The notes under the pieces are model-generated. The model ran no database searches. It worked only from the letters and a program-made list of their open reading frames with translations, and was not told the DNA's origin. From a virus (taxonomy: Duplodnaviria; Caudoviricetes): DNA of 52,733 nucleotides. Position numbers and translations under genes: made by a program. Positions 2,641 to 22,371 of the stretch are shown here, piece by piece; the first letter of the stretch is position 1; each line of letters starts with the position of its first letter. The stretch covers positions 1-52,733 of IMG/VR virus record IMGVR_UViG_3300025418_000293. One strand, given 5' to 3'.

Positions 2641-2644
2641 GATA

Positions 2645-2725: not shown

Positions 2726-2730
2726 GTGGC

Positions 2731-3329: not shown

Positions 3330-3377
3330 TTATTACTCCTGTGACTTAGTTACAGGTAATAATAGCATAAGTTTTAG

Positions 3378-3405: not shown

Positions 3406-3430
3406 AAAAAGTATTAAAAGTAATACTTTA

Positions 3431-4342: not shown

Positions 4343-4357
4343 TTGTTAGCTCCTTAA

Positions 4358-5218: not shown

Positions 5219-5234
5219 GTTGTTTCCTTAAAAT

Positions 5235-5684: not shown

Positions 5685-5685
5685 G

Positions 5686-6648: not shown

Positions 6649-6658
6649 GGTCTACTCC

Positions 6659-7063
6659 TTATGTTGCGCGGGAAATGCCACGGGGATCTTGAACCACAGC
6701 TTCAACAGAGTCATCATTGATGATCCTGAATTCTTTACCGTGAATCTTTAATCTTGTGCCCGTGTTGGGTCTAACAATCACAAAGTCCCCGACCTTACAA
6801 GAAGGCCCACTGGGAAAACGTGTTGCATCTTTATAGGCATCAGGGCCTAGTTTCACAACAAATAGTACTGGAGACAGCACTTCTTCATAGTGAATAGTTG
6901 TGCCTGACTTAATCAACCCACTCTCATATTTTTCATCAATCTCTGGTAAGACTGTGAGAATCTGAAAACGCACAGGATCAGGCAATTGTTTTGCCTTCTC
7001 ATCAGCCGTTGCGGGAAGTACAGTCGCGGTGGCACCGTCTTGGCTTACGAGTAGTTCACTCAT
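6659..7063 (-). CDS. groES: GroES-like co-chaperonin
   Basis: LPDPVRFQIL, ESGLI, VVKLGPDAY, CKVGDFV and GKEFRIINDDSVEAVV match the Cpn10 pattern. Confidence 0.85.
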   Translation of the reverse strand: MSELLVSQDGATATVLPATADEKAKQLPDPVRFQILTVLPEIDEKYESGLIKSGTTIHYEEVLSPVLFVVKLGPDAYKDATRFPSGPSCKVGDFVIVRPNTGTRLKIHGKEFRIINDDSVEAVVQDPRGISRAT

Positions 7064-7247
7064 TATTTTCCTTCTTTACTTTTTCTTCGAGGTCTTCAAG
7101 GTGGGAGTTGGCTCGGCTAAGACCCCGAATAAATCCGACCAACTCACGATACTCTGCCCAATCTTTGGCCCCGCCACTCACTAGCGGTTTCATGGCCATG
7201 TCGATTAAATCTTGGTTCTGCTTTTTTAAATACTCAATCTCTGTCAT
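7056..7247 (-). CDS. Small conserved helical protein
   Basis: 63 aa, GGAKDWAEYRELVGFIRGL; overlaps both neighbours. Confidence 0.75.
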   Translation of the reverse strand: MTEIEYLKKQNQDLIDMAMKPLVSGGAKDWAEYRELVGFIRGLSRANSHLEDLEEKVKKENNE

Positions 7248-9868
7248 TCAGTCGCTCCTGGTTCTGGCTTGTTCTCAGCCGCTTGCTTGGCCAAGTCCAT
7301 CTGCAACCTAGCTTTCTGTGCAGTGGCTAACAAGTCAGTCAAATGTTTCTGTTTGGTCTGCACTTGCTTTTGGTTTTGGTTGCGCGAATTCAAAGCCAAC
7401 TCCTGTTGCTTTGTTTGTGCACTATGTGCTAACTCCTGCTGCTGAGTCTGCTCGTTGTGCATCATCTGCTGCTGGTGCTGTTGTTGAGCTTGTTGCATCT
7501 GCTGCTGAGCCTGCTGCATCTCCATGGCGTGGCGTTGCGCCATCATCTCTGGAGTCTCGCCTAACTTGCTCTGAAGTTCTTGCGCTTTCAACTGCAACTC
7601 CTGCTGTTTAATCTGCAGCTCGCCTTGAACCTTTTGCTGACTGATCTGAACTTCTTGTTGCTTGATTTGCAACTCAGCTTGCTGCATCTGGATGAGCGGG
7701 TCTTGCGCTTGTTGCAAGGCTTGTTGCTGCGCAGTTTTCTGCTGATTAAGTTGTAACAACTGTGTGCTAGCTTGTGCAACCAACTGAGACAATTGAACCT
7801 CAACTTGCTCTGGCATATCTTCATCAGGTGGTGGCAACAACACACCCAACTGCTCTTGCAATTTCTGTCTATACAAAAACGCAAGATGCTGCGCAATATG
7901 GGCATTTACTGCCGCAGACATCTGCTGAGCCATCGGGTTCTGCCCAATTTGCTGAGCAATCATTGGGTCTTGCAAGAACGTTGTGTGCACTGCAATGTGC
8001 GCATCGTGATCCTGATAGATAAACGCTTTAGTCGGCGAGCCATTCAAGAACGCCATGTTCTCTGATACTGGGTCACGCGGTTTTTGATCCTCGTCAATCG
8101 GCACGAGCTTCTCTGCGTTCGGAACACCCAAGACATCAATCATCTGTCTGTGCAACTGCGCCAAGTTATAAATCTGCGGAGCCTGCGCCGACATCTGCAT
8201 CACAGCTTGGTATTGCATGATGCGTTGAGCCATCGTCGATGTATTGGGATCGCTAACGGGTATGACATCCACCATGTCATAGTCTTCCCTCTTAGCACTC
8301 TTCTTGGCCATGACTGGCTCATAGTCATAAGAGCTTGGGGTGTGATCTCTTATGATTTCTTTGAGTAACTTAAACTCTTCCTTCATCGAGTTGTGCACGC
8401 GAGCTTGCACAGCGCCCATCACTTTGAGTTGCCTCTCCAACAGCGCCAGTGTTGTACCCACAGGAGCTTGGCTCGACATGTCGCTGACCTTCATGTCGGC
8501 GATCGATCCCAATCTTCTAGCTTCGTCGGTGATTTGATTCAAAAGAGCCAACAAAACTTGTGACGGCTCCTTATAGGGAAGCGTCATGATGTTGTCTTTG
8601 ATCGCGCCGCTTGGCACATCAACATCCCTGAACTCTCCTGGGGCGATTGGTGTATCGTCACCCTTGACACGCAAGCCGCGAGATTTTAGCCCACCTGGTA
8701 GGTTAGATAAAGTTCCCGCGTCAACAAGCTGTCTAATGATCGATGTGCCCGCACGCGCGTAGCCACCAATGATATGAATCAAACCCATACCATAAGCACC
8801 GAACCCAGGAATATAACAATAGTCTACAAAGTGATTTCTCTTTTGCTTAAACTCTGTTTTCTTTTCTTCATTCCAATTCTCATAGATTGACAAAACTTTA
8901 TTTGTCCCTCTGTCGATCGAGATAATGTAAGGCTCTGCAACCTCAACATCTTTTTCTCGCTCAGACTTATCAAGCAGCCAATCAATCTGCACTTCATAAA
9001 TCTGATAACGATCATCATCGGTCAGTGAGTAGCCTTCGTCTTCGGCTTTTTTCTTTTCGATATCTGTGTAAAGTTGTTGTGGCTCGCCTAGTTCTATCTC
9101 TCTATAAAAACCTGCGGCTTGTAACTTCTTAATTTCATTTTTGGTCTTACGCATCATGTGAGTGACACGCTCTGCGTTCCTCACACCACTCGTACCATGA
9201 GGAATGATTACATCTTCTGCAGGTACAAACATCGACACCTGCCGACCAAGCCCTGGATCAAAATAAATTTTCTTGAACGCCGATCCCGCAAGCCCCAAAT
9301 TAAAGAGCATCTTCTCATGCTCCATCCTATACTCGGGCATCACCTCAGTCAGCTCATAGTTCATGTCTTCTTGGACACGTCTAGCAGCTTCTTGTTTCAC
9401 CTTATCAATAGCGCCAATGATCTCAGTCTTGACTGGGCCCGCTGGAGGAAACGTTTCCATGATAGATTCAGCCTGGAACCTAATCGCAGCTTCTGTTAAG
9501 ACAGTGCTATAAACTCCACAAGCTCCATTCCAAGGCTCAGTGCGCTCTTCATACTTCATCCCAAGCACTTCTAGACCCTTAACATAGGTCTCAACCCAGT
9601 CTTTTCTGGACGAAATATCGGCTTCAATGAGCCCAACAATCTCGCCCGCCATGCTCTGTAATTCGCTTTCAGACATGTCTTCGGCAAGATTTTTGCTCCT
9701 TTTTGGCCCTTTTTCGGGTATTAAAGTGATCTCAACTGACCCATCTGCCATGTGTACAGCGTCAGGATTCTCTATTTCTATCTCCAAATCGGAGTCATCG
9801 CCAGGGTTTTGACCCATTAAACTGGGCATTCCCTGGGAATAAAGCGCTTTATCTACGTTGGTTGCCAT
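7244..9868 (-). CDS. Portal protein (podovirus type) with Gln-rich C-terminal barrel
   Basis: 874 aa near terminase; GSAFKKIYFD, YGMGLIH and RQLVDAGTLSNLPGG motifs; Q-rich coiled tail. Confidence 0.88.
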   Translation of the reverse strand: MATNVDKALYSQGMPSLMGQNPGDDSDLEIEIENPDAVHMADGSVEITLIPEKGPKRSKNLAEDMSESELQSMAGEIVGLIEADISSRKDWVETYVKGLEVLGMKYEERTEPWNGACGVYSTVLTEAAIRFQAESIMETFPPAGPVKTEIIGAIDKVKQEAARRVQEDMNYELTEVMPEYRMEHEKMLFNLGLAGSAFKKIYFDPGLGRQVSMFVPAEDVIIPHGTSGVRNAERVTHMMRKTKNEIKKLQAAGFYREIELGEPQQLYTDIEKKKAEDEGYSLTDDDRYQIYEVQIDWLLDKSEREKDVEVAEPYIISIDRGTNKVLSIYENWNEEKKTEFKQKRNHFVDYCYIPGFGAYGMGLIHIIGGYARAGTSIIRQLVDAGTLSNLPGGLKSRGLRVKGDDTPIAPGEFRDVDVPSGAIKDNIMTLPYKEPSQVLLALLNQITDEARRLGSIADMKVSDMSSQAPVGTTLALLERQLKVMGAVQARVHNSMKEEFKLLKEIIRDHTPSSYDYEPVMAKKSAKREDYDMVDVIPVSDPNTSTMAQRIMQYQAVMQMSAQAPQIYNLAQLHRQMIDVLGVPNAEKLVPIDEDQKPRDPVSENMAFLNGSPTKAFIYQDHDAHIAVHTTFLQDPMIAQQIGQNPMAQQMSAAVNAHIAQHLAFLYRQKLQEQLGVLLPPPDEDMPEQVEVQLSQLVAQASTQLLQLNQQKTAQQQALQQAQDPLIQMQQAELQIKQQEVQISQQKVQGELQIKQQELQLKAQELQSKLGETPEMMAQRHAMEMQQAQQQMQQAQQQHQQQMMHNEQTQQQELAHSAQTKQQELALNSRNQNQKQVQTKQKHLTDLLATAQKARLQMDLAKQAAENKPEPGATE

Positions 9869-9877
9869 GATTTATCC

Positions 9878-10684
9878 TTAAATTAACTTGCTGTTGCCCT
9901 TGATGGGCTTGTCTACTAAGCCGCCACGCTTGAAAACCTGGTTTCCCATGACGTCTACAGCGGGTTGATTTGAATTATCAGGCGAATTTGCTTGGTCTGT
10001 TGGTTGTTTTACGTCAGGTGTTGTCAAATCTACGGCAGGTTTAGATGGATCCACGTTGGGTGTATTGGCTTCTAGCTGATCGTTGTAGTGATCGGCAATA
10101 AAGTCCAACATCTCTTGGTTCTTTGGATGCGTAGCAGCGTAGCTTTCTGCGTTGGAGTCCGCCGCGTATTTCCTGGCTTTGGGGCCCGCGCCATTCCACA
10201 CCTCTAAAAATTGTTTTTTGCGTCTACCTGCTGTCTCTGATTTACCATAAATAGCAGCGGCAAACTTAGCGGCGTCGTCGTCGTGCCCGTTGCCAACCAA
10301 GTTCTTGTATATCTCAACTTGCTTTTTATTAGCAACATCCATGGCGTTGTAGTTTGTGCCGAAATCATCCCGACCTTCGTGCAGCGCCATGTTTGTTAAT
10401 TGTTCTGGAGTTAATTTAGGCACGCCAAAATGTGTGCCAGCCGCCGCGGCTCTCACAAAAGTCTCCATGGTGGGCGCATGAAACTTCGTAGGCAGGGTTT
10501 CCATCCTGTCTTTTGCACCAAACTTATTCTGCGGGTTTGCTCTATACCCCTGTATAAATTTAGCCTGCCCAGATGAGATGGGAATCGGGGTTGGTGTAAC
10601 GGGCGCTATATCCTCTGGGTCAACAGCATCCACCATAGGTTTCAACAGAGGTATCGAAGCCAATAAATCTCGTAAGCCAGCCAT
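9878..10684 (-). CDS. Hypothetical protein, possible lysozyme/transglycosylase-like fold
   Basis: LTNMALHEGR-DDFG and WNGAGPKARKY resemble lysozyme-superfamily motifs; C-terminal FKRGG. Confidence 0.5.
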   Translation of the reverse strand: MAGLRDLLASIPLLKPMVDAVDPEDIAPVTPTPIPISSGQAKFIQGYRANPQNKFGAKDRMETLPTKFHAPTMETFVRAAAAGTHFGVPKLTPEQLTNMALHEGRDDFGTNYNAMDVANKKQVEIYKNLVGNGHDDDAAKFAAAIYGKSETAGRRKKQFLEVWNGAGPKARKYAADSNAESYAATHPKNQEMLDFIADHYNDQLEANTPNVDPSKPAVDLTTPDVKQPTDQANSPDNSNQPAVDVMGNQVFKRGGLVDKPIKGNSKLI

Positions 10685-10692
10685 ATCCTGTC

Positions 10693-12225
10693 CTAGTAGA
10701 AGACCGCGTTGCGGCGTTTAAAGTATTGTTGTTCTTCAGGCTCATCAATTGGCAGCCTCAAAAACCCACCTTGTCGGAACCGCATCAGCGCTAAAGTCGT
10801 TGCATCAACCAAGTCATCGTGTTCCCCAGATGGGAAAGCAGCTATTTCGTCAACCAATTCTTCAGCCCAGCGTGTTCGTGGCAGATAAACTTTGCCAGAC
10901 GCAATGATATCCGACACTGAGTTCAAGCGGGCAATTTTGTCTTGGCCCCTACTGGGCGTATATTCCTGCACGGGAATACCCATGGCGCGCAACTCATAGA
11001 TCAACGGAGCACCTGTGGCTTTCTTTTCCACGAGTAGCCCATCAGGTTCCCACTCGTTGTACTCCGCCAGCACATCTTTCTTTAACTCTACCCACTCAAC
11101 ACGCTTCTTATAAGTATTAAGTAATATGATATGTGGCTTACTTCTGTCTTCATCTTTATAGAATATCCCCCACGTCGTGCCCGCTGAATAGTCAGCACGC
11201 TGGTTCTTTTCAAATGCAGTATCCCATGTCTGCAAAATGTAATCGCAAGGAGGCGGCACTTCATCTTCCCACCACTGCCACCAATCCCGTTTAACAATCG
11301 CACTCTCATTACCCACTGGGTTTTGCTGATACTGTGCTTGCCACTTACTATTTGGCAACTCATCTCTCAGAGCTTCCAATTCAGGCAGTGACCAAAACTC
11401 TGGCCATACGGGTTTACCCGAAGGCATAATGGCAGGAAACTCAATCACCTCCCATTGTTCTCCGCCACGGGCGGCGGCAGCTTTGAGCACTTGCCCTGTC
11501 AAATCCCGCATCGCCCAGCGCGTCATCACAATCACAATAGCTCCGCCTGGTTGTAGACGTTGACGCGGGCCAGACGTATACCACTCGTACACTTTATCAA
11601 AGACATCTGGGTTACTCGCAGCCAGCGCGGCTTCTTGTTCAGAGTGCGGATCGTCAATGATCAAAAGGTTTGCACCCTTACCTGTAACTGTACCGCCAAC
11701 ACCAATAGCAAAATAATCACCACCCTTGGAAGTGTTCCAGCGGCCCGCTGCTTTGGAATCTTGCTGTAATTGCAAATTGGGAAATATTCCTTTGTAGACT
11801 TCTGAGTCAACTAGGTTCCTAACTTTCCTACCGAATCCAACTGCCAGCTCTCCAGTATTGGAGGATTGGATAACTTTTTTATGGGGGAATCTACCCAGAA
11901 ACCAAGCAGGGAGCAAGTAAGAAGCGAATTCTGACTTAGTATGTCGCGGAGGCATATTAATAATAAGCCTTTTAGTTTCTCCATTCGCGACCCTTTCAAA
12001 AGCCTTCGCCATGATTTTGTGGTGTCGCCCAGATATAAACTCTGGCCAGACTTGATGCACAAAACCCATAAACGTATTTTGCGCAAGCTCTTTCTCCATC
12101 ATCTTCTCACGATGCTCTAGATCGCGGAGGATTTGTTCTTTCTTAGATTGGGGCAGTTTGTCTAGCTGCGCTAAGAGCAGCTTAAATTCAGGATCAAGGG
12201 TTTCTACCAATTGATCATCCCTCAT
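10693..12225 (-). CDS. terL: Terminase large subunit
   Basis: INMPPRHTKS Walker A-like, LLIIDDPH Walker B, VMTRW, QTWDTA and FPSGEHDDLVDA nuclease motifs; start taken at ATG 12225. Confidence 0.95.
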   Translation of the reverse strand: MRDDQLVETLDPEFKLLLAQLDKLPQSKKEQILRDLEHREKMMEKELAQNTFMGFVHQVWPEFISGRHHKIMAKAFERVANGETKRLIINMPPRHTKSEFASYLLPAWFLGRFPHKKVIQSSNTGELAVGFGRKVRNLVDSEVYKGIFPNLQLQQDSKAAGRWNTSKGGDYFAIGVGGTVTGKGANLLIIDDPHSEQEAALAASNPDVFDKVYEWYTSGPRQRLQPGGAIVIVMTRWAMRDLTGQVLKAAAARGGEQWEVIEFPAIMPSGKPVWPEFWSLPELEALRDELPNSKWQAQYQQNPVGNESAIVKRDWWQWWEDEVPPPCDYILQTWDTAFEKNQRADYSAGTTWGIFYKDEDRSKPHIILLNTYKKRVEWVELKKDVLAEYNEWEPDGLLVEKKATGAPLIYELRAMGIPVQEYTPSRGQDKIARLNSVSDIIASGKVYLPRTRWAEELVDEIAAFPSGEHDDLVDATTLALMRFRQGGFLRLPIDEPEEQQYFKRRNAVFY

Positions 12226-12943
12226 AGGAATTTTCCTCTGAAGGTTTATTTTCAATAACTAGGGTTTCCTCTAATTCCTCTTTAACATCTAGATCAATGG
12301 TGGTGACCTCTTGGGCATGCAGTCTCATCATCTTTCTGATCTTATCCTTGATGGCGTTGTCTATATCATTGACCGAGTTATACGTCACAGTAATTTCAGT
12401 CTTCTCAGTGAATAAGCCAACGTCGGATACTTTACCCAATAGCTCAGTTGCCTTGATCTCAATCCGTGGGTCACCGCACATTGTTAGATCAAGCAGTTTA
12501 TTAATAGTCACTTGGCGTAGCTCGGCGGCATCAGCGACTATCTGGCTGTTGTACTCCTGCAGCATGGAACCAATTCGTTCGGCGACAGAACGTTTCTCTA
12601 GCTCTCGGGGATTAGCAGATGGTTTTGGTTCTTTTCGTTTCTTTGGCTTCTCGGCCATCGCATCTTCGTATTGTTGCTTAGCCAGCGTTGCGAAGTCCTC
12701 AAATACTTTGTCCGCTTCTTGCTGGGCAGTGGGATCTGTTTCTATTGTGGTGCCTTCTAGTTCACCGCCCTCCAATTCGCTGAGCCCGCGTAGCAGCGCC
12801 GCCGTGTTGGCAGCGATCTGCATATTTTCACGAAGAGTAGAAGCAACCTCTGGCGCTGCAGAAGTTGGATATGGAACCGTATGTTCGGGGTGAAGAGGTA
12901 TAGCCATGGAGGAAAGTGGGCACTCCAAAAAAGATGTTTGCAT
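12215..12943 (-). CDS. terS: Putative terminase small subunit
   Basis: Directly upstream of and overlapping terL; IKATELLGKVSDVGLFTEK motif; start may be 12907. Confidence 0.65.
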   Translation of the reverse strand: MQTSFLECPLSSMAIPLHPEHTVPYPTSAAPEVASTLRENMQIAANTAALLRGLSELEGGELEGTTIETDPTAQQEADKVFEDFATLAKQQYEDAMAEKPKKRKEPKPSANPRELEKRSVAERIGSMLQEYNSQIVADAAELRQVTINKLLDLTMCGDPRIEIKATELLGKVSDVGLFTEKTEITVTYNSVNDIDNAIKDKIRKMMRLHAQEVTTIDLDVKEELEETLVIENKPSEENSYEG

Positions 12944-13141
12944 TGTAGCAGCATGGAACCAAAAAATGCAAGGGGGGTGTTTTTGGTAGTACCTTTTTAG
13001 TGACGGGGGGTGTTTTTTAAAATTTGCTGATCAATTGTACGGAATACTGTGTATGTGTGCGGGGTGTACCTTTCCCGCAGTTTGGGGGGTGCCCAGGTAG
13101 TGGGGGTCGCCGTGTCCCCGAATTTTTTTCTCTATCGTCAA

Positions 13142-13223
13142 AGGTCTAGTCGGAGAAGATCGTTTTTATTTTCGAGGTTTAGTCGGAGAAGATCGTTTTT
13201 ATTTTCGAGGTTTAGTCGGAGAA
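13142..13223 (+). repeat. 33-bp tandem repeat, about 2.5 copies
   Basis: AGGT(C/T)TAGTCGGAGAAGATCGTTTTTATTTTCG at 13142 and 13175, partial copy at 13208. Confidence 0.95.
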
Positions 13224-13329
13224 AAGCGAAATTTTTTTTCTGGTGCTTTGTTACCCTGTGTGGAATTTTCCCCTGCTTTCTGTGGTTATGTCATACTAAA
13301 CACATGGGGAAATTGATTGCTTCCCCGTC

Positions 13330-13358
13330 GGAAACATCGACACAATGTCGATTGTTCC
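13330..13358. promoter_or_regulatory. Dyad site copy 1
   Basis: GGAA-ACA-TCGACA-CAA-TGTCGA-TTG-TTCC. Confidence 0.85.
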
Positions 13359-13397
13359 GTGAGCGTTTTGCTCGTTCCTTTATTTGGAGAATTAATC

Positions 13398-14054
13398 ATG
13401 ACTAAAAATCAAAACCCTGTTGCATCGGCTACGGCTGTTGTTGTTCAAACCATTGCGGGCAAACCTGCTATCGAGTTGCAAGATACGATCTTCACTATCG
13501 GTGAAGAATCGTTGATCGCTGAAAAGAAAATGTCTGAGGGCAAGCAAGCTCTCGATGTGCTCGATGCGAACCTCAACGATATCATCAAGGGCTTGCCTTA
13601 CGCTGAGTTCATGCTTGTTCGTGACTTCTACAAAGCGGGCGTGATCGACAAAGGCGTGAGCGACGATGGTGCTCAGAAACAATGGGAGCGCGCGGTCAAT
13701 CGTTGCGTGTCGACTTTTAATTTCATTAAGCCCAAGTCGCAAAGCGCCGACGCGTTGCGCAAAGCTGAAGCGAAGAAGAAGAAAATCGAAGAGCTCGCAA
13801 AGTTTGACGATGAGAAAATCGAAGAGAAAAAAGCTGAGCTCATTGCGCAGGGTACTGTGCAAGCGTTAAAGCAAGCGCAAGTTATCGCTCAGGAAATCGA
13901 GCGCCGTAACTCTGATGTACTTGAAGCTGAGAAGGCTCGCCGTAAAGAGCAAGCCGAAGCTATCATCAAGCGTATTCGTGAGTTAGTCAAGGCGGGCACG
14001 CCTGATGCTGATGATATCTTGTTTCAGTTGCACGCTATCGCGTCTGTTTATTAA
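13398..14054 (+). CDS. First early gene, helical/coiled-coil hypothetical protein
   Basis: GGAGA RBS before ATG 13398; 218 aa, Ala/Lys/Glu-rich. Confidence 0.85.
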   Translation: MTKNQNPVASATAVVVQTIAGKPAIELQDTIFTIGEESLIAEKKMSEGKQALDVLDANLNDIIKGLPYAEFMLVRDFYKAGVIDKGVSDDGAQKQWERAVNRCVSTFNFIKPKSQSADALRKAEAKKKKIEELAKFDDEKIEEKKAELIAQGTVQALKQAQVIAQEIERRNSDVLEAEKARRKEQAEAIIKRIRELVKAGTPDADDILFQLHAIASVY

Positions 14055-14064
14055 TTAACCTTTG

Positions 14065-14092
14065 GGAAATGTCGACACTTGTCGATGTTTCC
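14065..14092. promoter_or_regulatory. Dyad site copy 2 (2-nt centre variant)
   Basis: GGAA-ATG-TCGACA-CT-TGTCGA-TGT-TTCC. Confidence 0.8.
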
Positions 14093-14115
14093 CTTTTCTT
14101 TATTTGGAATTTATT

Positions 14116-14217
14116 ATGTTTGATTTTAATTCTTTTATGGCGCTCCTTATATTGGCGTGCGGGTTTGTTTTGTTTCTTTGGGCGTTGCTCATTATTTTGG
14201 AGGACTTAATGAAATAG
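14116..14217 (+). CDS. 33-aa single-helix membrane peptide (below the ORF-track cutoff)
   Basis: MFDFNSFMALLILACGFVLFLWALLIILEDLMK; leader TTTATTTGGA shared with the gene at 13398; followed by a terminator. Confidence 0.6.
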   Translation: MFDFNSFMALLILACGFVLFLWALLIILEDLMK

Positions 14218-14237
14218 TTTGCGCTGAGTAAACTCGC

Positions 14238-14277
14238 GCCCGCCTCGGACTTCGGTTCGGGGCGGGCATTTTTTTTT
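14238..14277 (+). terminator. Intrinsic terminator
   Basis: GCCCGCCTCGGAC-TTCG-GTTCGGGGCGGGC then A and T9. Confidence 0.9.
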
Positions 14278-14448
14278 GGCCCGCTTTTTGCTTGGCCGTT
14301 CCGCGCCCTCGCGTGTCGCGCGCGACACCAGTTCCCGTGAAGTAACGTGATAGCTCGTTGCCCAGCGGGCGATGCTTAGCGTGGAGTTTCCCCGCATTCC
14401 CTGATTCTATGTTACCAGTTCCCGAAGCAACGGCCTAGCCCGCGATGC

Positions 14449-14477
14449 GGAACAATCGACACGTTGTCGTTTTTTCC
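14449..14477. promoter_or_regulatory. Dyad site copy 3
   Basis: GGAA-CAA-TCGACA-CGT-TGTCGT-TTT-TTCC. Confidence 0.8.
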
Positions 14478-14639
14478 CAGCCGTGCTCGCGAAGAGTGCT
14501 CGGCTAGTGCAACCGTAGTTAAGCATCAACCTATTCTACAAAATGGATTACGAATGAACGGACTAGCTCAGCGCGGGCCCAGCTAGCTTCGCGGAGGGGT
14601 ATGCACAGAGGGAAAACCCCGTCTGAACGGCCTAGCATA

Positions 14640-15060
14640 TATCGTACCAATAATACATAACGTATCGCTCAAAACGTATATAACGGAGTTTTGAATCTCC
14701 CCAGCAACGTTATGCTCATTTAATGTTATTCTTTTACTAGATCATATGCAGAGGCTCAAATTCTCTAAGTCCTTGTTATATATATATATTTTAATAAAAA
14801 TAATAATAATAGAGTAAAAAATATCAAATATCATAGCCTTTTTTTAGGAATTATGAAGCCCCAAATTTGTCTCCACCCAAACACAGAAAAAGTTGAGAAT
14901 CAGGTGTTTTGACGAAAAATGTTTTTCTTAACCCTTTCATAATTCCGAAAAGTGGTCAATGGTATTTATTATTTATTATCTAAAAATAACAAAAATCTAT
15001 GTATTTCGGGGTAAACCTGTTGACAAACGTAATATACAAAGATAACATATCTAAGCCATA
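14640..15060. other. AT-rich non-coding region, possible replication origin
   Basis: No long ORF; (TA)n run near 14778-14789; A/T tracts; spaced inverted repeat. Confidence 0.4.
15020..15048 (+). promoter_or_regulatory. Sigma70-like promoter
   Basis: TTGACA-17 nt-TAACAT upstream of the gene at 15152. Confidence 0.6.
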
Positions 15061-15151
15061 ACGTTGTTGAACACCCCCAAAACTACCCCCAAAAAGGGTG
15101 GTGTTGGCCACGCGCAACAGTCATTTTACCCACCAACTAGGAGAAACCCTA

Positions 15152-15820
15152 ATGAGAACCGCGAAGTACACCAATGCCGATACCTTGCTCGACAACTGCA
15201 CCATTCATGCCGACACTTGTTGTTGGACATGGCCCGAAGCCAACTTGCCGATCCCGCAGATCAGCCCTACCGCCCCGATGGCGAAGTTGATGGGTACAAA
15301 CTCCGTTACCCGTATTCTTTTCTGCATACTCCGACACCCGCCCGCATGCCGACGTCTGGTGTCCCGTTGCTCCACACCATTCTGTGTTAACCCCTACCAT
15401 CACGCAGAATCCTATAAGGTGTTACGCAAACGCAAACAAATCGAATCCTTGGGTTTGCCTTTTGATACCCCAATCAAAGACACAATTGACCGAAGCGTTT
15501 ATCCTGACGATGATGTGCTTAGATCACTAGTGTTTAAAAACCCAGTATATGTTAAAGCGTTGGGCGAAGCCGCGATGCGGGCAGGGACACATGGCAACAT
15601 GATTAGTAGGAGCGCAACTGCGCCTCGCCCCAAAATAAAGATAGCTATAAAGCGCAATATCGAGAAGCCCGTTCAGCGCGAGCTAAGCGAAGAGGACAAA
15701 AAGCTAGCCGAGATGGATATAGATCAGATATTCGACGCCGTGATGATGAAGAAAAAACGAAAAATGATTGAAGACTGGGATGACAGCTATTCCACCCCTA
15801 AAAACGGCGCAGGTGCTTAA
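15152..15820 (+). CDS. Degenerate HNH / zinc-binding-loop endonuclease-like protein
   Basis: DTCCWTW...RCSTPFCVNPYH pattern; AGGAG RBS before ATG 15152. Confidence 0.65.
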   Translation: MRTAKYTNADTLLDNCTIHADTCCWTWPEANLPIPQISPTAPMAKLMGTNSVTRILFCILRHPPACRRLVSRCSTPFCVNPYHHAESYKVLRKRKQIESLGLPFDTPIKDTIDRSVYPDDDVLRSLVFKNPVYVKALGEAAMRAGTHGNMISRSATAPRPKIKIAIKRNIEKPVQRELSEEDKKLAEMDIDQIFDAVMMKKKRKMIEDWDDSYSTPKNGAGA

Positions 15821-15833
15821 AACCCGACCAAGG

Positions 15834-15864
15834 ACTTGACAAAGTCTAGTTTTTGTGGTATACT
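15834..15864 (+). promoter_or_regulatory. Sigma70-like promoter, shared-motif class (copy A)
   Basis: ACTTGACAAAGTCTAG; TTGACA-17 nt-TATACT with extended TGn. Confidence 0.85.
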
Positions 15865-15918
15865 CTACTATGTAGAGTAAAAACTACAGGGTTATTCATG
15901 CGCAACACAACAACAATC

Positions 15919-15947
15919 GGAATAGTCGACACCATGTCGATTATTCC
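15919..15947. promoter_or_regulatory. Dyad site copy 4
   Basis: GGAA-TAG-TCGACA-CCA-TGTCGA-TTA-TTCC. Confidence 0.85.
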
Positions 15948-15965
15948 CTTCCAAAGGAAAACAAA

Positions 15966-16133
15966 ATGGGAACACCTTACTACCACACCGCCGAGTCTGT
16001 GTTTGAAACAATCAAACGCTACAAAGATCTTCATGGGTTCGAGACCATCGAAGAAGCAATCGAGGACATGGCATCTTGCTATGACGACTTGGATGCTGAA
16101 GACAAGAGTGCATACGATTACACGAGTAATTAA
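15966..16133 (+). CDS. 55-aa acidic hypothetical protein (not in the ORF track)
   Basis: AAAGGA RBS; MGTPYYHTAESVFETIKRYKDLHGFETIEEAIEDMASCYDDLDAEDKSAYDYTSN; stop 1 nt before the next ATG. Confidence 0.75.
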   Translation: MGTPYYHTAESVFETIKRYKDLHGFETIEEAIEDMASCYDDLDAEDKSAYDYTSN

Positions 16134-16134
16134 T

Positions 16135-16428
16135 ATGAAGTTCCTATTATCACGCAATTCTAAAGAATCAGATGACGATGAAGGCAGCAGCGCGTCCTCG
16201 TCACTTACCCCATTTCATCCCTGCACACGATGCGGAGATGATGTCCCCGCACAGCGTTGGTACAAAATATCAAAGCTGTGCTTATTCTGCGGTGAAGAAG
16301 CCGCAGTTCTTGAACGTGCCTCTTGGTGCGTTGTTCAACCCTACAACAAAGGGCCTTATATGCTAGTGACTGTAAGTTCTGCACCGCAGACGCTCATGGA
16401 CACGAACCAAAAGGCAACGCGTTCGTAG
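16135..16428 (+). CDS. DksA/TraR-type C4 zinc-finger protein
   Basis: CTRCGDDVPAQRW...LCLFC matches CxxCGxxIPxxR...CxxC; start re-assigned to ATG 16135. Confidence 0.65.
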   Translation: MKFLLSRNSKESDDDEGSSASSSLTPFHPCTRCGDDVPAQRWYKISKLCLFCGEEAAVLERASWCVVQPYNKGPYMLVTVSSAPQTLMDTNQKATRS

Positions 16429-16432
16429 TATC

Positions 16433-16461
16433 GGAATCTTCGACACGGTGTCGATTATTCT
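16433..16461. promoter_or_regulatory. Dyad site copy 5
   Basis: GGAA-TCT-TCGACA-CGG-TGTCGA-TTA-TTCT. Confidence 0.85.
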
Positions 16462-16492
16462 TTTTTATCTCAATCTTTAATTGGAAAATAAA

Positions 16493-17569
16493 ATGTCAGA
16501 AATCAAATTCTCTCGTCGCGTCAACTTCGCAGAAGCGGTTGACATCATACTCAACTCTGGTAACAACTCAGTTCACCTTACTGGCGAGCCAGGCGTTGGC
16601 AAGACTGCAATCCAAGACGTCATCGTCGAGCGCACAGGCTTTCACAAAGTCTACATCGACGGGCCAAACACCGACGTAGGCCAAGCGGGCATGCCGATCC
16701 CCAATCACACGACTCGCACCTTGGACTTCTACCCTGCGGAAAACTTTAAGTTGCATCTCAACGAGCCATGCGTAATCATGATCGACGAGTGGACTAAGAC
16801 CGACGACTATGTGCGCAACACTTTGCATCCCCTCTTGCATGAGCGTCGCATGAGTGATCGTTATCTGCATCCTAAGTCAATTGTCTTCACTACTGGTAAC
16901 AACGACGGCGATGGCGTCGGTGACTCAGCCAAGGCGCATACTCGCAATCGTCAGACATGGCTCACCTACATGAAGCCCACCGCAGAAGAGTGGCTCAAAT
17001 GGGCTATCAATAACGGAGTAGCAGAAGAGTTACTTGCATGGGTTACTGAGTATCCTCATTGCCTAGCATCCTACATAGATGGCGGGCAGAAAGAAAACCC
17101 TTACATCTTCAACCCATCGGATGCGTCGCAGATTGCGTTCGTGTCGCCTCGCTCTTTATTCAAGGCGTCGCATTGGGTCAAACGTCGTGACGTGATAACA
17201 GAGAACGCATTGATTGCGTGTCTCGACGGCACTCTTGGCTTTGCCGCATCGCGGGATCTGCAAGCCTATATCTCCATGGCTGATCAGCTACCTACGCGTG
17301 AGGCGATATCCAATAATCCTGAAACTGCTTTGATTCCAACGAGTCCTGCGGCTCTTTGTATCTTAGCTTTCAAGATCGTAACTGCATCCACCCGTGAAAC
17401 ATTCGGTACTTGGATGAAATACATACGTCGCATGCCCAAGGAAACGCAAGCGGTGTTCGTCAATACTTTGCTCGAAGATCAAAGTAAAAAGAACTGGGCC
17501 CTATCGCATCCTGCGTTTGTGACGTGGGCCCGTGAGAATCAATATATGTTTGCAGGATTGAAAGGATAA
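16493..17569 (+). CDS. MoxR/AAA_5-like AAA+ ATPase
   Basis: GEPGVGKT Walker A, IMIDE Walker B, TGN sensor, SPRS motif. Confidence 0.9.
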   Translation: MSEIKFSRRVNFAEAVDIILNSGNNSVHLTGEPGVGKTAIQDVIVERTGFHKVYIDGPNTDVGQAGMPIPNHTTRTLDFYPAENFKLHLNEPCVIMIDEWTKTDDYVRNTLHPLLHERRMSDRYLHPKSIVFTTGNNDGDGVGDSAKAHTRNRQTWLTYMKPTAEEWLKWAINNGVAEELLAWVTEYPHCLASYIDGGQKENPYIFNPSDASQIAFVSPRSLFKASHWVKRRDVITENALIACLDGTLGFAASRDLQAYISMADQLPTREAISNNPETALIPTSPAALCILAFKIVTASTRETFGTWMKYIRRMPKETQAVFVNTLLEDQSKKNWALSHPAFVTWARENQYMFAGLKG

Positions 17570-17572
17570 ATC

Positions 17573-17830
17573 ATGAGTATCAAAATTGGAACAGCAACAC
17601 GCGAAGAAGTAGAAGATGAAATGGCGGATCAGACGCGTAACTTGTACATAGCCATTGGTGCGGTGCTTGACTCGCGCCGCATTGATGTTGTGCTATCTGC
17701 ATTGAGCAAGCACTTCATTGAGACTTGCTTAGAGGTAGGCATGAACCGAGATGACTTCACCGAGGTCGCTCTGCGTGTCTACGATGTAATCAAAGAAAGC
17801 AACGAAGAGGAAAACAAATATGTTAACTAA
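17573..17830 (+). CDS. Hypothetical protein
   Basis: 85 aa, AAAGGA RBS, tightly packed in the operon. Confidence 0.75.
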   Translation: MSIKIGTATREEVEDEMADQTRNLYIAIGAVLDSRRIDVVLSALSKHFIETCLEVGMNRDDFTEVALRVYDVIKESNEEENKYVN

Positions 17831-19106
17831 ATCCAAACTAACTGCGGAGCAACGCATTGAGCTGGTGCATGTCAGCCTTATGCGTTCAAGGGAGTTCGCG
17901 TTGTTCGCGGGCTTGTTCATGGTCGGCTCGGTCGAGGTGATCGACGCGCCCGTTACTGCGTGTACGAATGGTCGTGACGTCAAGTATGGTCGAGAGTTCA
18001 TCGCTGAGCTAACCGATAAAGAGTTGGCCTTTCTTGTTCTGCATGAGAATATGCACAAGTGCTACCGCCATCTCACAACGTGGGCGAAGCTATACGAAAC
18101 CCATCGTGCATGTGCCAACATGGCATGCGACTATGTCATCAACATCCAACTGTGCGATCTTGACCCGCATGGCAAGCTCATCTCGTTTCCTATTAACAAG
18201 GAAACAGGAGAGCGTATGGGTCTGGTCGATGAGAAGTATCGTGGGTGGGATGCCAAGCAAGTCTTTGATGACTTGATGAAGCACGCCAAGCCCATTCCTC
18301 CCCGTAGCGGGCAGGGCGAGGATGGCGAAGGCCAAGGTCAAACCCAAGGAGATGGGAATAATCGACAAGATGTCGAAGATTCCGATGGCGTACCATCGTT
18401 CGATGAGCATGACTGGGAGAATGCGAAAGAGATGACCGAGAAGGAGAAAGACGAACTCGGTAAAGAGATCGACAGTGCATTGCGCCAAGGTTCTATCTAC
18501 GCGGGCAAGGTCGGTGCTAACGTACCACGAGAGATCGGCGAGCTTCTGGCCCCGAAGATCGATTGGCGGGCGGTGCTACGTCGGTTCGTCAAGACGCATC
18601 TCAAAGATCGTGACGCACCATCGTGGCGTAAGGCTCATCGTAATTACTTATGGCAAGACGTCATACTGCCAAGCATCATTGGCAAACGCGTCAAGCATCT
18701 TGTGATTGCAATGGACACATCAGGCTCGGTCGCGGGCAGACTGCTCGACATGTTCCTCACCGAACTTAATAAGATCGTTGTGGATACGCGGGCTGAGCGC
18801 GTCGACGTCTTGTACTGGGACACAAGCATATGTGGTCATGAGACTTACAAGAGCACTGATAACAAGTCTATTGTGCATCGCACTAACCCACGCGGGGGTG
18901 GCGGGACTAACCCCGACTGTATTGCTGACTTCTTCCGCGCCGAGCAACTCAAGCCCGACGCGTTGGTCGTTATCACAGATGGGTATATGCACAGCAAGCC
19001 AGAGAACTGGCGTCACGTCGGCGTTCCGTCGCTGTGGTGTGTGATCGGCAACGACAGTTATAAGCCACCACATGGTCAGTTGTTAACCATTAAGGATGAA
19101 TCATGA
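17820..19106 (+). CDS. Putative metallopeptidase plus VWA domain protein (DUF2201-like)
   Basis: TACTNG, LHENMH (HExxH), NMACDYVIN; VWA MIDAS DTSGS, GGGGTN and VITDGY. Confidence 0.9.
   Translation: MLTKSKLTAEQRIELVHVSLMRSREFALFAGLFMVGSVEVIDAPVTACTNGRDVKYGREFIAELTDKELAFLVLHENMHKCYRHLTTWAKLYETHRACANMACDYVINIQLCDLDPHGKLISFPINKETGERMGLVDEKYRGWDAKQVFDDLMKHAKPIPPRSGQGEDGEGQGQTQGDGNNRQDVEDSDGVPSFDEHDWENAKEMTEKEKDELGKEIDSALRQGSIYAGKVGANVPREIGELLAPKIDWRAVLRRFVKTHLKDRDAPSWRKAHRNYLWQDVILPSIIGKRVKHLVIAMDTSGSVAGRLLDMFLTELNKIVVDTRAERVDVLYWDTSICGHETYKSTDNKSIVHRTNPRGGGGTNPDCIADFFRAEQLKPDALVVITDGYMHSKPENWRHVGVPSLWCVIGNDSYKPPHGQLLTIKDES
18355..18383. promoter_or_regulatory. Dyad site copy 6 (inside CDS, in the low-complexity linker)
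   Basis: GGAA-TAA-TCGACA-AGA-TGTCGA-AGA-TTCC. Confidence 0.85.
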
Positions 19107-19258
19107 GCCAAGCCGCTTATTCTATTAATCTCAATCGGGAAACTTTCGAGTTGCTCGAAGATGTACGCGAACGCCTAGTCGCTGAACTAGGGTTCGAGCC
19201 AACTCTCGGTCAGGTGGTTCGCCACTTGATTGCCATTTACCATGCAAGAAAGGTGTAA
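19103..19258 (+). CDS. 51-aa putative ribbon-helix-helix DNA-binding protein (not in the ORF track)
   Basis: ATGA overlap, AAGGA RBS; YSINLNRETFELLEDVRERL...PTLGQVVRHLI has a strand-helix-helix pattern. Confidence 0.55.
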   Translation: MSQAAYSINLNRETFELLEDVRERLVAELGFEPTLGQVVRHLIAIYHARKV

Positions 19259-19260
19259 CC

Positions 19261-19443
19261 ATGCCACTCATCGCACTTGGTAAAGGGCAGGTCGTTTACG
19301 AGCGACCTAGTGAGCGCGTTCGCATTGGCAGACTTGTTTGTATTAACGAGATCGTCAACGCACGCAAACGTAGGAATGCGACCGAACAACTCTCGGTCAG
19401 CATGTCCATTATCCAAAAAGCATATCTTTTCAAAGGAAAATAA
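19261..19443 (+). CDS. Hypothetical protein
   Basis: 60 aa, AAGGTG RBS, fills the gap between coupled genes. Confidence 0.55.
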   Translation: MPLIALGKGQVVYERPSERVRIGRLVCINEIVNARKRRNATEQLSVSMSIIQKAYLFKGK

Positions 19444-19444
19444 A

Positions 19445-20512
19445 ATGGGTTGGAATACTGCGCGAGTATCGAAACTTAATAGTTTCGACGAAGCGAGAAA
19501 GAGATTTCTCGATACACCACCGATAAAGGGCAATCCTCTCAAGGTTCGCCCTCTCGGAGCGAGACGTTATTACAGGTTGGCGAGCATCTCGATGCCCAAC
19601 GACAGCACTGTGAGTCTCGACTACTGTGGCAGACCACTTGTGGTTTGGCATAGCGACAATACGTTTGAAGTGCATTATCCGTATTACACATCTGCGTATG
19701 TGCCCGACAACATCTTCAACTACGTTCCTATTGGGTTCGGGTTTGGGTGGTCGAAGTCTCGTCTGACGTTGCGCATGAGCGGGGAAGAGTTTGTTATGGA
19801 ACGTGGCGAAGTGTATAAATTTCAAAACATCAAAAACAAATTCTTTTTCTTGAATGCCCCTACGTCATACAACTATCGGTTGAATGTGCGTGAGTTCAAG
19901 CAAAAGTTTGACCCTGTGCAGAAGTTCTTGGACTGGTTCAACATTGTGTCTGCTATCAATAACGAGCACACTTCATTAGCTATTCAAGAAGTCTATGCAA
20001 ACTTCAAACTTGCACATGAAGTACCGCCTTTGTTGCTTTTCGATGAACTCAGAGAACGATGCCAAAAGCATCGTAATAACGACGAATTGAATAAGATCTG
20101 CATGCAATGCTGGGATGAGCAACGCGACTCTGAATGGTTACCCGTTGGGGGCAATCAACGTTACCATCATCGGTACACTGGGTTTCATCGCCCAACGGCA
20201 GAGACGTTATACAACTGGATCATTGATCGCGATGGCGAGCATTGGACTGAGGCGTTATACGTCATACTCAATTCGCAAGGCACACGCGTTGATCGCGGAG
20301 ATTCATTCACAATTACGCAGAAGGATTTGCGTGAGTATGTGGTGAACATCGTTAAGTTCTTGTTTCGTGACGAGGTGTTCAACCGCGTGCGTCTAGACAA
20401 GGGCGTGGTTGCGTCGAAGACCAACTACAACTTCTTTGAACCCGAAACAGTGTTCAGTATCAACAGCGGAACAATCGACATCGTGTCGAAAATTCTTGGA
20501 GAACTAAAATGA
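19445..20512 (+). CDS. Hypothetical early protein
   Basis: AAAGGA RBS before ATG 19445 (MGWNTARV); 355 aa. Confidence 0.8.
   Translation: MGWNTARVSKLNSFDEARKRFLDTPPIKGNPLKVRPLGARRYYRLASISMPNDSTVSLDYCGRPLVVWHSDNTFEVHYPYYTSAYVPDNIFNYVPIGFGFGWSKSRLTLRMSGEEFVMERGEVYKFQNIKNKFFFLNAPTSYNYRLNVREFKQKFDPVQKFLDWFNIVSAINNEHTSLAIQEVYANFKLAHEVPPLLLFDELRERCQKHRNNDELNKICMQCWDEQRDSEWLPVGGNQRYHHRYTGFHRPTAETLYNWIIDRDGEHWTEALYVILNSQGTRVDRGDSFTITQKDLREYVVNIVKFLFRDEVFNRVRLDKGVVASKTNYNFFEPETVFSINSGTIDIVSKILGELK
20468..20496. promoter_or_regulatory. Dyad site copy 7 (in the CDS 3' end, abutting the next RBS)
   Basis: GGAA-CAA-TCGACA-TCG-TGTCGA-AAA-TTCT. Confidence 0.85.
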
Positions 20513-21366
20513 ATGCAATATCTTTATCCTCAATGGCAATGTTAGTGGAACTGCGTATCAGCACATGGACTGCACGCAAGCGTGACAACGAGACGACTAT
20601 GGATGTCAACACCGAGAAGAACGCAGATCAGGATGCGGGCTCGGTGTATAAGTATCTCATGGCGGGCAGTGATCACCTCAAGAAGATCGAGAAGTATGCG
20701 GCGAAGGCTAGGGCTTGGAACTCGTCGCAGACTCTCCCTTGGATGAAGGGTGTTAGCCTTTTACCCATGGAGAACTTCTTCAAGTACCGCGAGCAACTCG
20801 GTACGATGGAGTCAAACTTCTATGCGCTTGTCGATGAGTTCATCATTGCGTATCCCAAATTGAAAAGCGATCAGGCTTTCAAGCTGGGCAAGTACTACAA
20901 GGCTGAAGAGTTCCCCGACGTGGAGACGCTACCGCGTCGCTTCAAGTTCGAGTATAACTTTCTCCCTGTTCCAGAGAAGGGTGACTTCCGCATCAACTGC
21001 GAAGACCGCGTGCGCGCTGACCTTGCTCAGCAGTACGAGAAGATGTACACGGACAAGCTGGCCGAAGCTATGCGTGAACCATGGAACAGACTGCATGAGG
21101 TGCTGACTCACATCAGCATGACCATGACTGACAAGCAAAACGGTGATCGTCGGATCTTCCGCGACACGCTTGTAGATAACGCAACAGGTCTTTGTGATCT
21201 GCTGACTAGACTCAACGTGACCAATGATCCAGAACTTGAGAGCGCTCGTCGTTTGCTAGAACAGGCAATCGTTGGAGTCGATCCCCAGGATCTCCGCGAA
21301 TCATCTCATGCTAGGCTAGAACTGAAAGCGTCTGTCGACGATATCCTCAACAAATTTAAATGGTGA
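20509..21366 (+). CDS. Conserved phage protein (DUF3150-like)
   Basis: MLVELRISTWTARKRD start, TLPW, FRDTLVDN and LNVTNDPELE motifs; family name from memory. Confidence 0.6.
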   Translation: MNAISLSSMAMLVELRISTWTARKRDNETTMDVNTEKNADQDAGSVYKYLMAGSDHLKKIEKYAAKARAWNSSQTLPWMKGVSLLPMENFFKYREQLGTMESNFYALVDEFIIAYPKLKSDQAFKLGKYYKAEEFPDVETLPRRFKFEYNFLPVPEKGDFRINCEDRVRADLAQQYEKMYTDKLAEAMREPWNRLHEVLTHISMTMTDKQNGDRRIFRDTLVDNATGLCDLLTRLNVTNDPELESARRLLEQAIVGVDPQDLRESSHARLELKASVDDILNKFKW

Positions 21367-21370
21367 AAAC

Positions 21371-22240
21371 ATGATACCTACAAACATTAAACTAACAGAC
21401 GACCTCGTCTTAGATCCATCCTTTGCGTTGTTCCTCGAACCGCTAGCGTTGGCTAACCCTAACTGGGAGTTCACACCGCAGACTGCGAACTACAACGACA
21501 CGCGCACTACGGCTCATGTTCAACGTGACGAAGACAATCAGTATCTTTCCGCGCCTGCTGGTACTAAGTTTCTGAACAACGTCAAAGTAAAGCAAGACGG
21601 GCAGAGACTAGGTTTCTTGAAAATGGATAGTAAGCATACGGCAGAAGGCCATGTGCCCAACTACATTATTAAGTCGTGGCGTATCCACAAGTCGCGCGGG
21701 ACTTACGACGAGACAGAGACAACTAAACTTAAAATTGCACTACGCAATGCGAAGAAGTTTCTCAAGCCTCGAACGTTGGTAGAGTTATTCACTAAGAAAA
21801 GCAACGAACTCCAGAGTGGTTTTGTTAATGCGACAGCATCGCTTGTGCAAGCGTTTCGATACATTGGGCAAGACTTTTCTGGCGATGTACAACTGTATGC
21901 GTATTGTATACTGACCAATCGAGACGTACCACAAAAAACAAAAGCAAACGTGGAGAAAGTCATGACAGCATCTACTTACGAGAGACAGATCGGTGACTAC
22001 CAACTTGCCCTTAACATGAAAGAGTTGGAGAGTGCAGGTCGTTTGATGAGTATTGTCAAGACGCGAGACGACAAGTATATGTACGCATCCAAAAACGCTG
22101 ACCCTATCGTTGTAGAGTATGAAGAACTACCTGTGCCGTGGCAGGAGAAGCTGGCTGTGTTACAGCTCTTGCAAAACGACGAGTTAGCTGGAGATATCGG
22201 CTACCGACATACGAGTCACACGTTCATGATCGTGACATAA
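21371..22240 (+). CDS. Hypothetical protein
   Basis: 289-aa ORF, last gene before a terminator. Confidence 0.8.
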   Translation: MIPTNIKLTDDLVLDPSFALFLEPLALANPNWEFTPQTANYNDTRTTAHVQRDEDNQYLSAPAGTKFLNNVKVKQDGQRLGFLKMDSKHTAEGHVPNYIIKSWRIHKSRGTYDETETTKLKIALRNAKKFLKPRTLVELFTKKSNELQSGFVNATASLVQAFRYIGQDFSGDVQLYAYCILTNRDVPQKTKANVEKVMTASTYERQIGDYQLALNMKELESAGRLMSIVKTRDDKYMYASKNADPIVVEYEELPVPWQEKLAVLQLLQNDELAGDIGYRHTSHTFMIVT

Positions 22241-22257
22241 TAATTTGCTAACCAACT

Positions 22258-22282
22258 GACCCGCTTCGGCGGGTCTTTTTTT
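22258..22282 (+). terminator. Intrinsic terminator ending the early operon
   Basis: GACCCGC-TTCG-GCGGGTC-T7. Confidence 0.92.
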
Positions 22283-22286
22283 GCTC

Positions 22287-22315
22287 GGAATAATCGACAC
22301 GATGTCGGTATTTCC
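22287..22315. promoter_or_regulatory. Dyad site copy 8
   Basis: GGAA-TAA-TCGACA-CGA-TGTCGG-TAT-TTCC. Confidence 0.85.
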
Positions 22316-22340: not shown

Positions 22341-22371
22341 ACTTGACAAAGTCTAGACATGCCACTATATT
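22341..22371 (+). promoter_or_regulatory. Sigma70-like promoter, shared-motif class (copy B)
   Basis: ACTTGACAAAGTCTAG; TTGACA-17 nt-TATATT; AT-rich UP-like tract upstream. Confidence 0.85.

Follow-up and report, generated by a model that had tools for sequence, protein, structure and literature searches.

A conserved early-region array of 29-bp dyads, written in one sequence dialect per genome, and a candidate dimeric reader in phages of N4-like layout

The virus record IMGVR_UViG_3300025418_000293 (Duplodnaviria; Caudoviricetes) of IMG/VR is a linear sequence of 52,733 bp (CheckV 84%), which was analysed as a whole and is referred to here as the window. Its early region carries eight copies of a composite inverted repeat, GGAA-N3-TCGACA-N3-TGTCGA-N3-TTCC (where N3 stands for any three bases), all of which lie within positions 13330-22315. 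Dyads of the same geometry stand at matching positions in divergent relatives, and each genome writes its sites in a dialect of its own while keeping their symmetry. In the explanation that we consider the best, and to which we would give slightly less than an even chance, these dyads are double-stranded DNA sites for a symmetric dimer encoded by the phage, which together would form a stoperator-like roadblock or shut-off array, and which are likely read by a homodimer of the 218-aa product of the first early gene.

An earlier note, made by a model from the letters of the sequence and a list of its open reading frames, had reported eight copies and none elsewhere in the window; this was confirmed by a pattern search and by shuffled sequences. 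At up to three mismatches the 29-bp pattern had seven matches (three exact and four with one mismatch), as against none in 100 dinucleotide-preserving shuffles; read backwards, as a control, it had none, and no further 29-bp match was found elsewhere in the 52,733-bp window. The eighth copy (copy 2, inner arms at 14072-14085) came from a separate search and has a 2-nt centre, the other seven of the eight having 6-bp arms around a 3-nt centre. A half-site is made up of GGAA as the outer block and TCGACA as the inner arm, separated by 3 bp rich in A/T. The placements given in the note were likewise correct, with copy 1 ahead of the first early gene, copy 8 right after the early terminator, copy 6 in the linker of the peptidase/VWA gene, where in the frame of the gene it encodes G-N-N-R-Q-D-V-E-D-S, and copy 7 in the last codons of another gene (Table 1). 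A start codon follows 12-39 nt downstream of five of the eight copies, with none following the other three.

Table 1. Coordinates of the dyad copies, the candidate reader gene, predicted transcription signals and gene blocks in the window.
Feature	Position	Strand	Form	Context
Dyad copy 1	13330..13358		exact	ends 39 nt before the ATG at 13398; syntenic site before the homologous gene in relatives L042-L045
Dyad copy 2	14065..14092		28 bp, 2-nt centre	arms fully paired, then a T-rich tail
Dyad copy 3	14449..14477		1 mismatch	GC-rich, conserved and non-coding surroundings; 180 nt past the 14238-14267 terminator
Dyad copy 4	15919..15947		exact	near +47 relative to the start predicted for the 15836-15864 promoter; 18 nt before the ATG at 15966
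Dyad copy 5	16433..16461		1 mismatch	31 nt ahead of the MoxR-type AAA ATPase gene
Dyad copy 6	18355..18383		exact	G/D/E-rich linker of the DUF2201_N/DUF2201 (metallopeptidase/VWA) gene 17820-19106
Dyad copy 7	20468..20496		1 mismatch	last codons of the 356-aa gene (ends 20512), 12 nt before the next ATG
Dyad copy 8	22287..22315		1 mismatch	12 nt after the stem of the 22258-22275 terminator; next promoter's -35 lies 27 nt further on
First early gene	13398..14054	+	218 aa, no known family	best candidate reader
Sigma70-like promoter (predicted)	15836..15864	+	TTGACA-17-TATACT with TG, 11/12	upstream of copy 4
Sigma70-like promoter (predicted)	22343..22371	+	TTGACA-17-TATATT, 11/12	next block (Hjc-like nuclease, DNA polymerase onwards)
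Intrinsic terminator (predicted), strong	14238..14267	+	13 pairs, T9	follows the small membrane-protein gene
Intrinsic terminator (predicted)	22258..22275	+		strong; closes the early operon; gggtcttttttt conserved before the last dyad in L042-L045
Head and packaging block	1-12943	leftward		large terminase, portal, head protein
Rightward block	13398-35007	+		begins with the early genes
Third block	35045-52733	leftward		first gene is that of the 2337-aa polyvalent ejection protein

A scan of IMG/VR with the exact pattern returned 37 stretches on 28 contigs. Four larger relatives hold 8-9 copies each (at up to three mismatches) inside one ~10-kb region, and a fifth, truncated record holds one. 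Across the relatives, 7-10 such dyads stand at matching positions, always in one ~10-kb region, and the confinement seen in the window recurs in three 100%-complete relatives of ~64 kb, whose 8-9 sites all lie in a single ~10-kb stretch with none elsewhere, so that hits are not spread over the genome, a point on which the earlier note had staked its reading. The early proteins of these relatives are 28-89% identical to those of the window, which is about equally distant from all of them, and conservation of site position is strong despite this divergence. Syntenic sites are found before the first early gene, in the conserved non-coding stretch, before the small gene, before the ATPase gene, in some genomes over its stop codon, in the linker of the VWA gene, where the 356-aa gene ends, and past the early terminator. 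A promoter equivalent to that at 15836-15864 precedes a site in genomes G001, G002, G010 and G006. In the early region of Roseobacter phage CRP-7, no dyad repeated three or more times was found.

The arrangement at the end of the region is the same in all six genomes in which the junction was found, the last site beginning 4-18 nt past the T-run of the terminator, at a varying distance from the next promoter. Helical phasing of this site with that promoter was considered and dropped, as the distances from centre to -35 are 42, 61, 61, 52, 46 and 50 nt. Overall, a dyad begins either 24-72 nt downstream of a predicted transcription start or 56-75 nt upstream of the following -35, and none overlaps a predicted -35 or -10 element, which fits the earlier note's view of a region-wide system rather than of simple operators. 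Neighbouring sites are spaced at no more than ~2.6 kb, intragenic sites included.

Over the ATPase stop codon (GGA TAA...), several relatives have an extra dyad (at 7318-7346 in L042 and at the same place in L043 and L045), whose overlap with the stop codon accounts for the GGAT variant of the outer block; the window has no recognisable copy there. The GC-rich non-coding stretch around copy 3 (14270-14700) is conserved in four relatives and had no Rfam match. It contains a duplicated box (ACCAGTTCC...GCAACGG..TAG), the second copy of which directly precedes the dyad, and a conserved GCTCGGCAAGTGC that follows it; downstream come an AT-rich stretch (14700-15010) and then a sigma70-like promoter (15020-15048).

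The intragenic site in the VWA linker is informative about what is conserved. A dyad was present in 27 of the 30 loci that cover the linker (at least eight of ten mirrored pairs, offset 489-622 nt), and the remaining three hold degenerate versions. The linker peptide differs by dialect and, within type II (see below), the dyad is read in two different frames, so that it is the DNA that is conserved here and not the peptide. These comparisons indicate that purifying selection acts on the nucleotides of the sites.

An alignment search with the ATPase gave 35 loci, about half of which had no match to the motif of the window even at four mismatches. These loci carry a different dyad, of the same geometry and in the same places. 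The dialect of the window, type I, is accompanied by type Ib, which has GGAC..GTCC outer blocks and differs from type I by one base per half-site; by type II, GAAC-N3-CCGACA-N3-TGTCGG-N3-GTTC; by type III, GAAC-N3-TCGAAT-N3-ATTCGA-N3-GTTC; and by type IV, which joins GGAA to inner arms CCCTGA/TCAGGG and has a conserved core ACCCT..AGGGT. When each pattern was counted at up to two mismatches across 34 sources, every genome was found to use one dialect family, without mixtures, types I and Ib being the exception. In the 22 ATPase loci displayed, a dyad in the genome's own dialect stands upstream of the ATPase gene. Outer block and inner arm vary semi-independently, and dyad symmetry is kept in every dialect, in outer block and inner arm alike.

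Since all 7-10 sites of a genome share its dialect, their reader should recognise sequence and should differ between these phages. One dialect per genome calls for a sequence-specific reader that co-evolves with its sites, and a purely structural reader would not impose such genome-wide dialects. The earlier note had taken the copies for binding sites of a dimeric protein, and reading of the motif by a sequence-specific trans-acting factor with two-fold symmetry gains support from the positional conservation, the single dialect per genome and the preserved symmetry. A match to a known host regulator site was among the outcomes that the note had named as refuting its reading. Among 185,579 species genomes (one genome per species), the exact type I pattern had no match and the exact type II pattern had five, all singletons in unrelated taxa; these genomes gave no sign of a host regulon, and at the level of sequence we found no support for the dyad as the site of a host regulator.

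The pattern of variation in the sites bears on whether they act as duplex DNA or as RNA hairpins. As the earlier note had observed, the N3 positions vary without compensatory pairing: Watson-Crick combinations at the three N3 pairs were seen in 26, 20 and 37 of 94 cases, below the 31, 27 and 45 expected, and pairing was likewise rarer than chance within each dialect. In types II and III these positions are A/T-only, as expected for a spacer that is read indirectly. Among the arm pairs, 218 of 1980 are not Watson-Crick, and 128 of these 218 are neither G-T nor A-C, which makes the departures mostly one-sided and uncompensated. In type I, all 13 position pairs show mirror symmetry in their base preferences (p > 0.01), unpaired positions and loop edges included. 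The competing possibility is a transcribed hairpin, in which an internal loop separates an upper stem of 6 bp from a lower stem of 4 bp, and which a phage RNA-binding protein or nuclease would read to control early mRNA processing, stability, translation or termination. Several observations speak for such an element and count against duplex DNA as the target. The RNA of all eight copies is predicted to fold as a hairpin, five copies stand shortly ahead of start codons, and sites lie in 5' leaders, 24-72 nt past predicted starts. Both helices stay complementary across dialects, and the GGAG..CTCC variants are compensatory. Copy 2, which has a 13-pair stem at 14064-14093 and a folding z of -5.6, resembles an intrinsic terminator too, as does its counterpart in L044. 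There are also hints of a strand-specific constraint, in that sense-strand G-T pairs mildly exceed A-C pairs in the arms (58 versus 32), the central base leans to G (50 versus 31) and type II is asymmetric at positions 6/22. Nevertheless, an RNA element sits poorly with a last site placed just past a strong terminator in the six genomes with the junction, where little RNA is expected, and with the position of copy 3 behind another terminator. It also sits poorly with pairing broken outright in 128 of 218 arm departures, with N3 pairs that are rarer than chance and A/T-only, with an unconserved loop and mirror-symmetric base preferences, and with start codons that stand at varying distances or, for three copies, are missing. 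On balance we lean towards duplex DNA as the target, and we regard a hairpin read in RNA as unlikely while giving it more weight than any of the alternatives that follow.

The evidence from the sites would also serve for a DNA array with a function other than transcription, such as parS-like loading or condensation, or protection or entry control of the first-entering DNA by a phage protein, possibly an injected one. A spacing of at most ~2.6 kb, kept even inside genes as if coverage counted, would suit such a function, as would a region that begins at a divergent junction carrying repeats; of 117 homologues of the giant ejection protein, moreover, three, on other contigs, have a ParB-like domain (PF02195). 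However, a Pfam scan of 33 window proteins gave no PF02195, conservation of the giant protein's N-terminal part is poor even among type I genomes, and the placement of the sites follows gene starts and terminators; we hold this function to be improbable. More improbable still are extruded DNA hairpins that would act as promoters for an N4-type virion RNA polymerase, or as a structure-specific signal for priming, nicking or resolution. The likeness to N4 lies in a short inverted repeat with a 6-bp stem and a 3-nt loop or centre, in its early location, and in a genome layout and AAA/VWA genes that recall N4-like phages, with the gene for a giant virion protein at the position of N4's polymerase. 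N4 promoters depend on conserved bases in the loop and on closure by a G:C pair (PMC4496689). Here, by contrast, the loop varies and is closed by an A:T pair, the sites number 8-10 instead of three, the outer blocks are symmetric, and no conserved element stands at a fixed downstream distance. Neither the 2337-aa protein nor those of 764 and 769 aa had a polymerase match, remote homology being possible, and homologues of the 2337-aa protein carry LPD39, LPD38 or ParBc domains only; moreover, the region is already served by strong sigma70-like promoters. As to host RNase III, hairpins between the genes of an early operon are reminiscent of the processing sites between T7 early genes. RNase III substrates span about two helical turns, whereas the helices here are 10-13 bp long and never extend beyond the 29 nt into the flanks. 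The intragenic and post-terminator positions are unfavourable too, and a reader of structure alone would not force one dialect on all sites of a genome, which leaves RNase III processing scarcely credible.

If the dyads are DNA sites for a phage dimer, the protein that reads them should change with the dialect. We compared pairwise protein distances with the distances between symmetrised half-site matrices (Spearman r). The 218-aa first early protein gave r = 0.78 (n = 25), as against 0.06-0.64 for ten other families, namely the 356-aa protein (0.64), the 285-aa protein (0.55), the 289-aa protein (0.45), the 51-aa protein (0.43), the VWA protein (0.36), the DNA polymerase (0.27), the Hjc-like nuclease (0.19), the ATPase (0.13), the Cys4 protein (0.07) and the Cys-rich protein (0.06). 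The 218-aa family also had the fewest violations of type among nearest neighbours (one), and only in this family does L063, a type II genome that is otherwise nearest to type III genomes, group with its own type. R98 and R102, arginines that share a predicted helix, do not vary among the 26 genomes whose arms contain CGACA, and are replaced in the two CGAAW genomes and in the single CCCT genome. Structural modelling of the 218-aa protein as a homodimer gave a score of 0.74, the best control reaching 0.00; of 30 solved homodimers, 20 came up to that mark, as did one of 23 single chains. The runs agreed in at least 97% of contacts, with a partner pLDDT (predicted local distance difference test) of at least 82. 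From these comparisons and models we infer that the reader is most likely the product of 13398-14054, acting as a homodimer.

Some observations pull the other way. The 356-aa protein also correlates with the motif, as its r of 0.64 indicates, and since the genomes are related the correlations do not come from independent samples; the comparison of middle and late proteins covered 8 genomes only. Type II genomes hold two very different N-terminal forms of the 218-aa protein. Searches with this protein found no Pfam or PHROG family, no fold match in the PDB and no helix-turn-helix (HTH) match, and no DNA-binding fold or family emerged for it.

The earlier note had named the products of the genes at 13398, 15152, 19103 and 31713 as possible binders; the first of these became the best candidate, and the other three do not follow the dialects. 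The 51-aa protein (19103-19258) was rejected, as one type II genome and one type III genome encode versions of it that are 98% identical. It is conserved in relatives and appears ribbon-helix-helix-like, with an extended N-terminus and two helices in an AlphaFold 2 model (pLDDT 88), and a Foldseek search with it found no match. In the HTH protein (31713-31940) the putative recognition helix is almost invariant across dialects. The Cys-rich protein (15152-15820), besides its low r, showed five neighbour violations. A further candidate, the Cys4 protein (16135-16428), was also rejected, since it hardly differs between type IV and type I genomes.

The sites stand downstream of host-type promoters, before nearly every early gene, inside two genes and behind terminators, and it is from this distribution that we infer a roadblock array. 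In such a scheme, host polymerase would start at the strong sigma70-like promoters, and the first early product would accumulate and bind the dyads as a dimer. Occupied dyads would then block elongation within leaders and long genes, in the gaps between genes and past terminators, so that early transcription might be throttled or shut off, while read-through into the next block would be stopped and that block insulated. If the reader is the first early protein, site 1 would allow it to regulate its own gene.

The closest parallel is found in the stoperators of Cluster A mycobacteriophages (L5 gp71, Bxb1 gp69), which occur in many copies, mostly outside promoters and between genes, where they block elongation, each phage group having its own consensus matched to its own repressor (PMC6550527, PMC9283540). 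In the window, too, one site occurs in many copies (eight), none of which lies over a predicted -35 or -10, and the matching of consensus to binder may have a counterpart in the dialects and in their co-variation (r = 0.78) with the candidate 218-aa protein. Stoperators, however, are 13 bp long, asymmetric, oriented with transcription and bound by a monomeric repressor, whereas the present sites are 29-bp composite dyads; stoperators are spread over whole genomes of temperate phages and serve lysogeny, whereas these are confined to ~10 kb of early genes, in phages that had no match to the PF00589 integrase and have no recognisable repressor. Because its sites are symmetric, composite and confined, and because there is no sign of lysogeny, we do not place the array in the stoperator family.

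Other phages offer partial parallels. The conserved inverted repeats of the phiC31 repressor and the dispersed C1 operators of P1 are cases in which one regulator has repeated sites in the early region, many of them off promoters; both are temperate phages, and their sites are shorter (17 bp). We know of no dialect series or intragenic conservation for either. If the 218-aa protein is the reader, a likeness to Cro would also follow, as a first early product that binds dyads as a dimer and turns its operon down. Cro operators overlap promoters, whereas predicted -35 and -10 elements are free of dyads here and the candidate protein has no HTH match.

With dozens of genomes, each holding 7-10 syntenic sites, and with four dialects or more, these phages provide a natural series in which a regulator and all of its sites would have changed specificity together, extending a question that has so far been studied mainly in temperate mycobacteriophages. 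The findings suggest that apparently virulent phages of N4-like layout can control their early genes by roadblocks dispersed in an array, in place of operators at promoters or a switch of polymerase. At the intragenic sites, constraint at the level of DNA appears to override protein sequence and even reading frame, and the 218-aa protein is a testable candidate for a new family of DNA-binding proteins. A more far-reaching idea, which we consider a long shot, is that array and reader make up a new early-region code of virulent phages, in which half-sites of two modules would be read by a helical homodimer without known relatives among protein families, which would coat or punctuate the first ~10 kb. 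Rapidly changing dialects would then make co-infecting relatives mutually blind or inhibitory, much as in immunity, without lysogeny, and the system might be coupled to DNA entry.

The gene map of the window consists of three blocks, directed leftward, rightward and leftward. In the first ~9 kb of the rightward block most genes are without known function; those with recognisable products include the MoxR-type AAA ATPase, the metallopeptidase/VWA protein and a weak DUF3150 match, which together form a conserved early module (16493-21366). Past the 22258-22275 terminator, a consensus sigma70-like promoter is followed by genes for an Hjc-like nuclease and DNA polymerase A and, further on, for a PD-(D/E)XK nuclease, an SNF2 helicase and a DUF927 primase-helicase. 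No near-identical phage record was found, and cultured relatives are distant: their DNA polymerases are at most 35% identical, and the closest cultured homologues of the AAA ATPase, mostly from N4-like phages of Pseudomonas, Vibrio and Achromobacter, at most 26%. In the window genome and four related genomes, the tyrosine integrase PF00589 had no match (positive control 14/14; serine integrases were not searched for). The T7-like RNA polymerase (PF00940) had none either, a weak negative given that its control matched nowhere. No tRNAs were found in the window, and Rfam gave nothing at gathering score across it, nor at E up to 1 for 14200-15160.

The 2337-aa polyvalent virion/ejection protein (35045-42058, minus strand) has an LPD39 domain and a DarB-like C-terminus, its C-terminal ~750 aa matching the ends of phage protein families of 2400-4600 aa; its N-terminal part is highly variable among relatives. 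The 222-aa Cys-rich protein at 15152-15820 has its own sigma70-like promoter, with no dyad between promoter and gene, and is strongly divergent in relatives (31-37% identity). It had no Pfam match, and we take its C..C.NP.H pattern to resemble that of His-Me/HNH-type endonucleases. The gene of the 97-aa Cys4 protein (CxxCG...CxxCG) is nested in a longer, TTG-started frame (15853-16428) that crosses dyad 4. This protein is kept in 33 of the 34 sources and had no Pfam match; its pattern is reminiscent of TraR/DksA-type zinc fingers, for which Pfam gave no support. Between the packaging and the early genes lies the divergent junction (12944-13397), with a 33-bp tandem repeat in 2.5 copies (13142-13223) and, around 12972, 13007 and 13083, several runs of G that lead into runs of T (GGGGGGTGTTTTT-like); this junction may serve as an origin or a pac site, or may mark an end of the genome.

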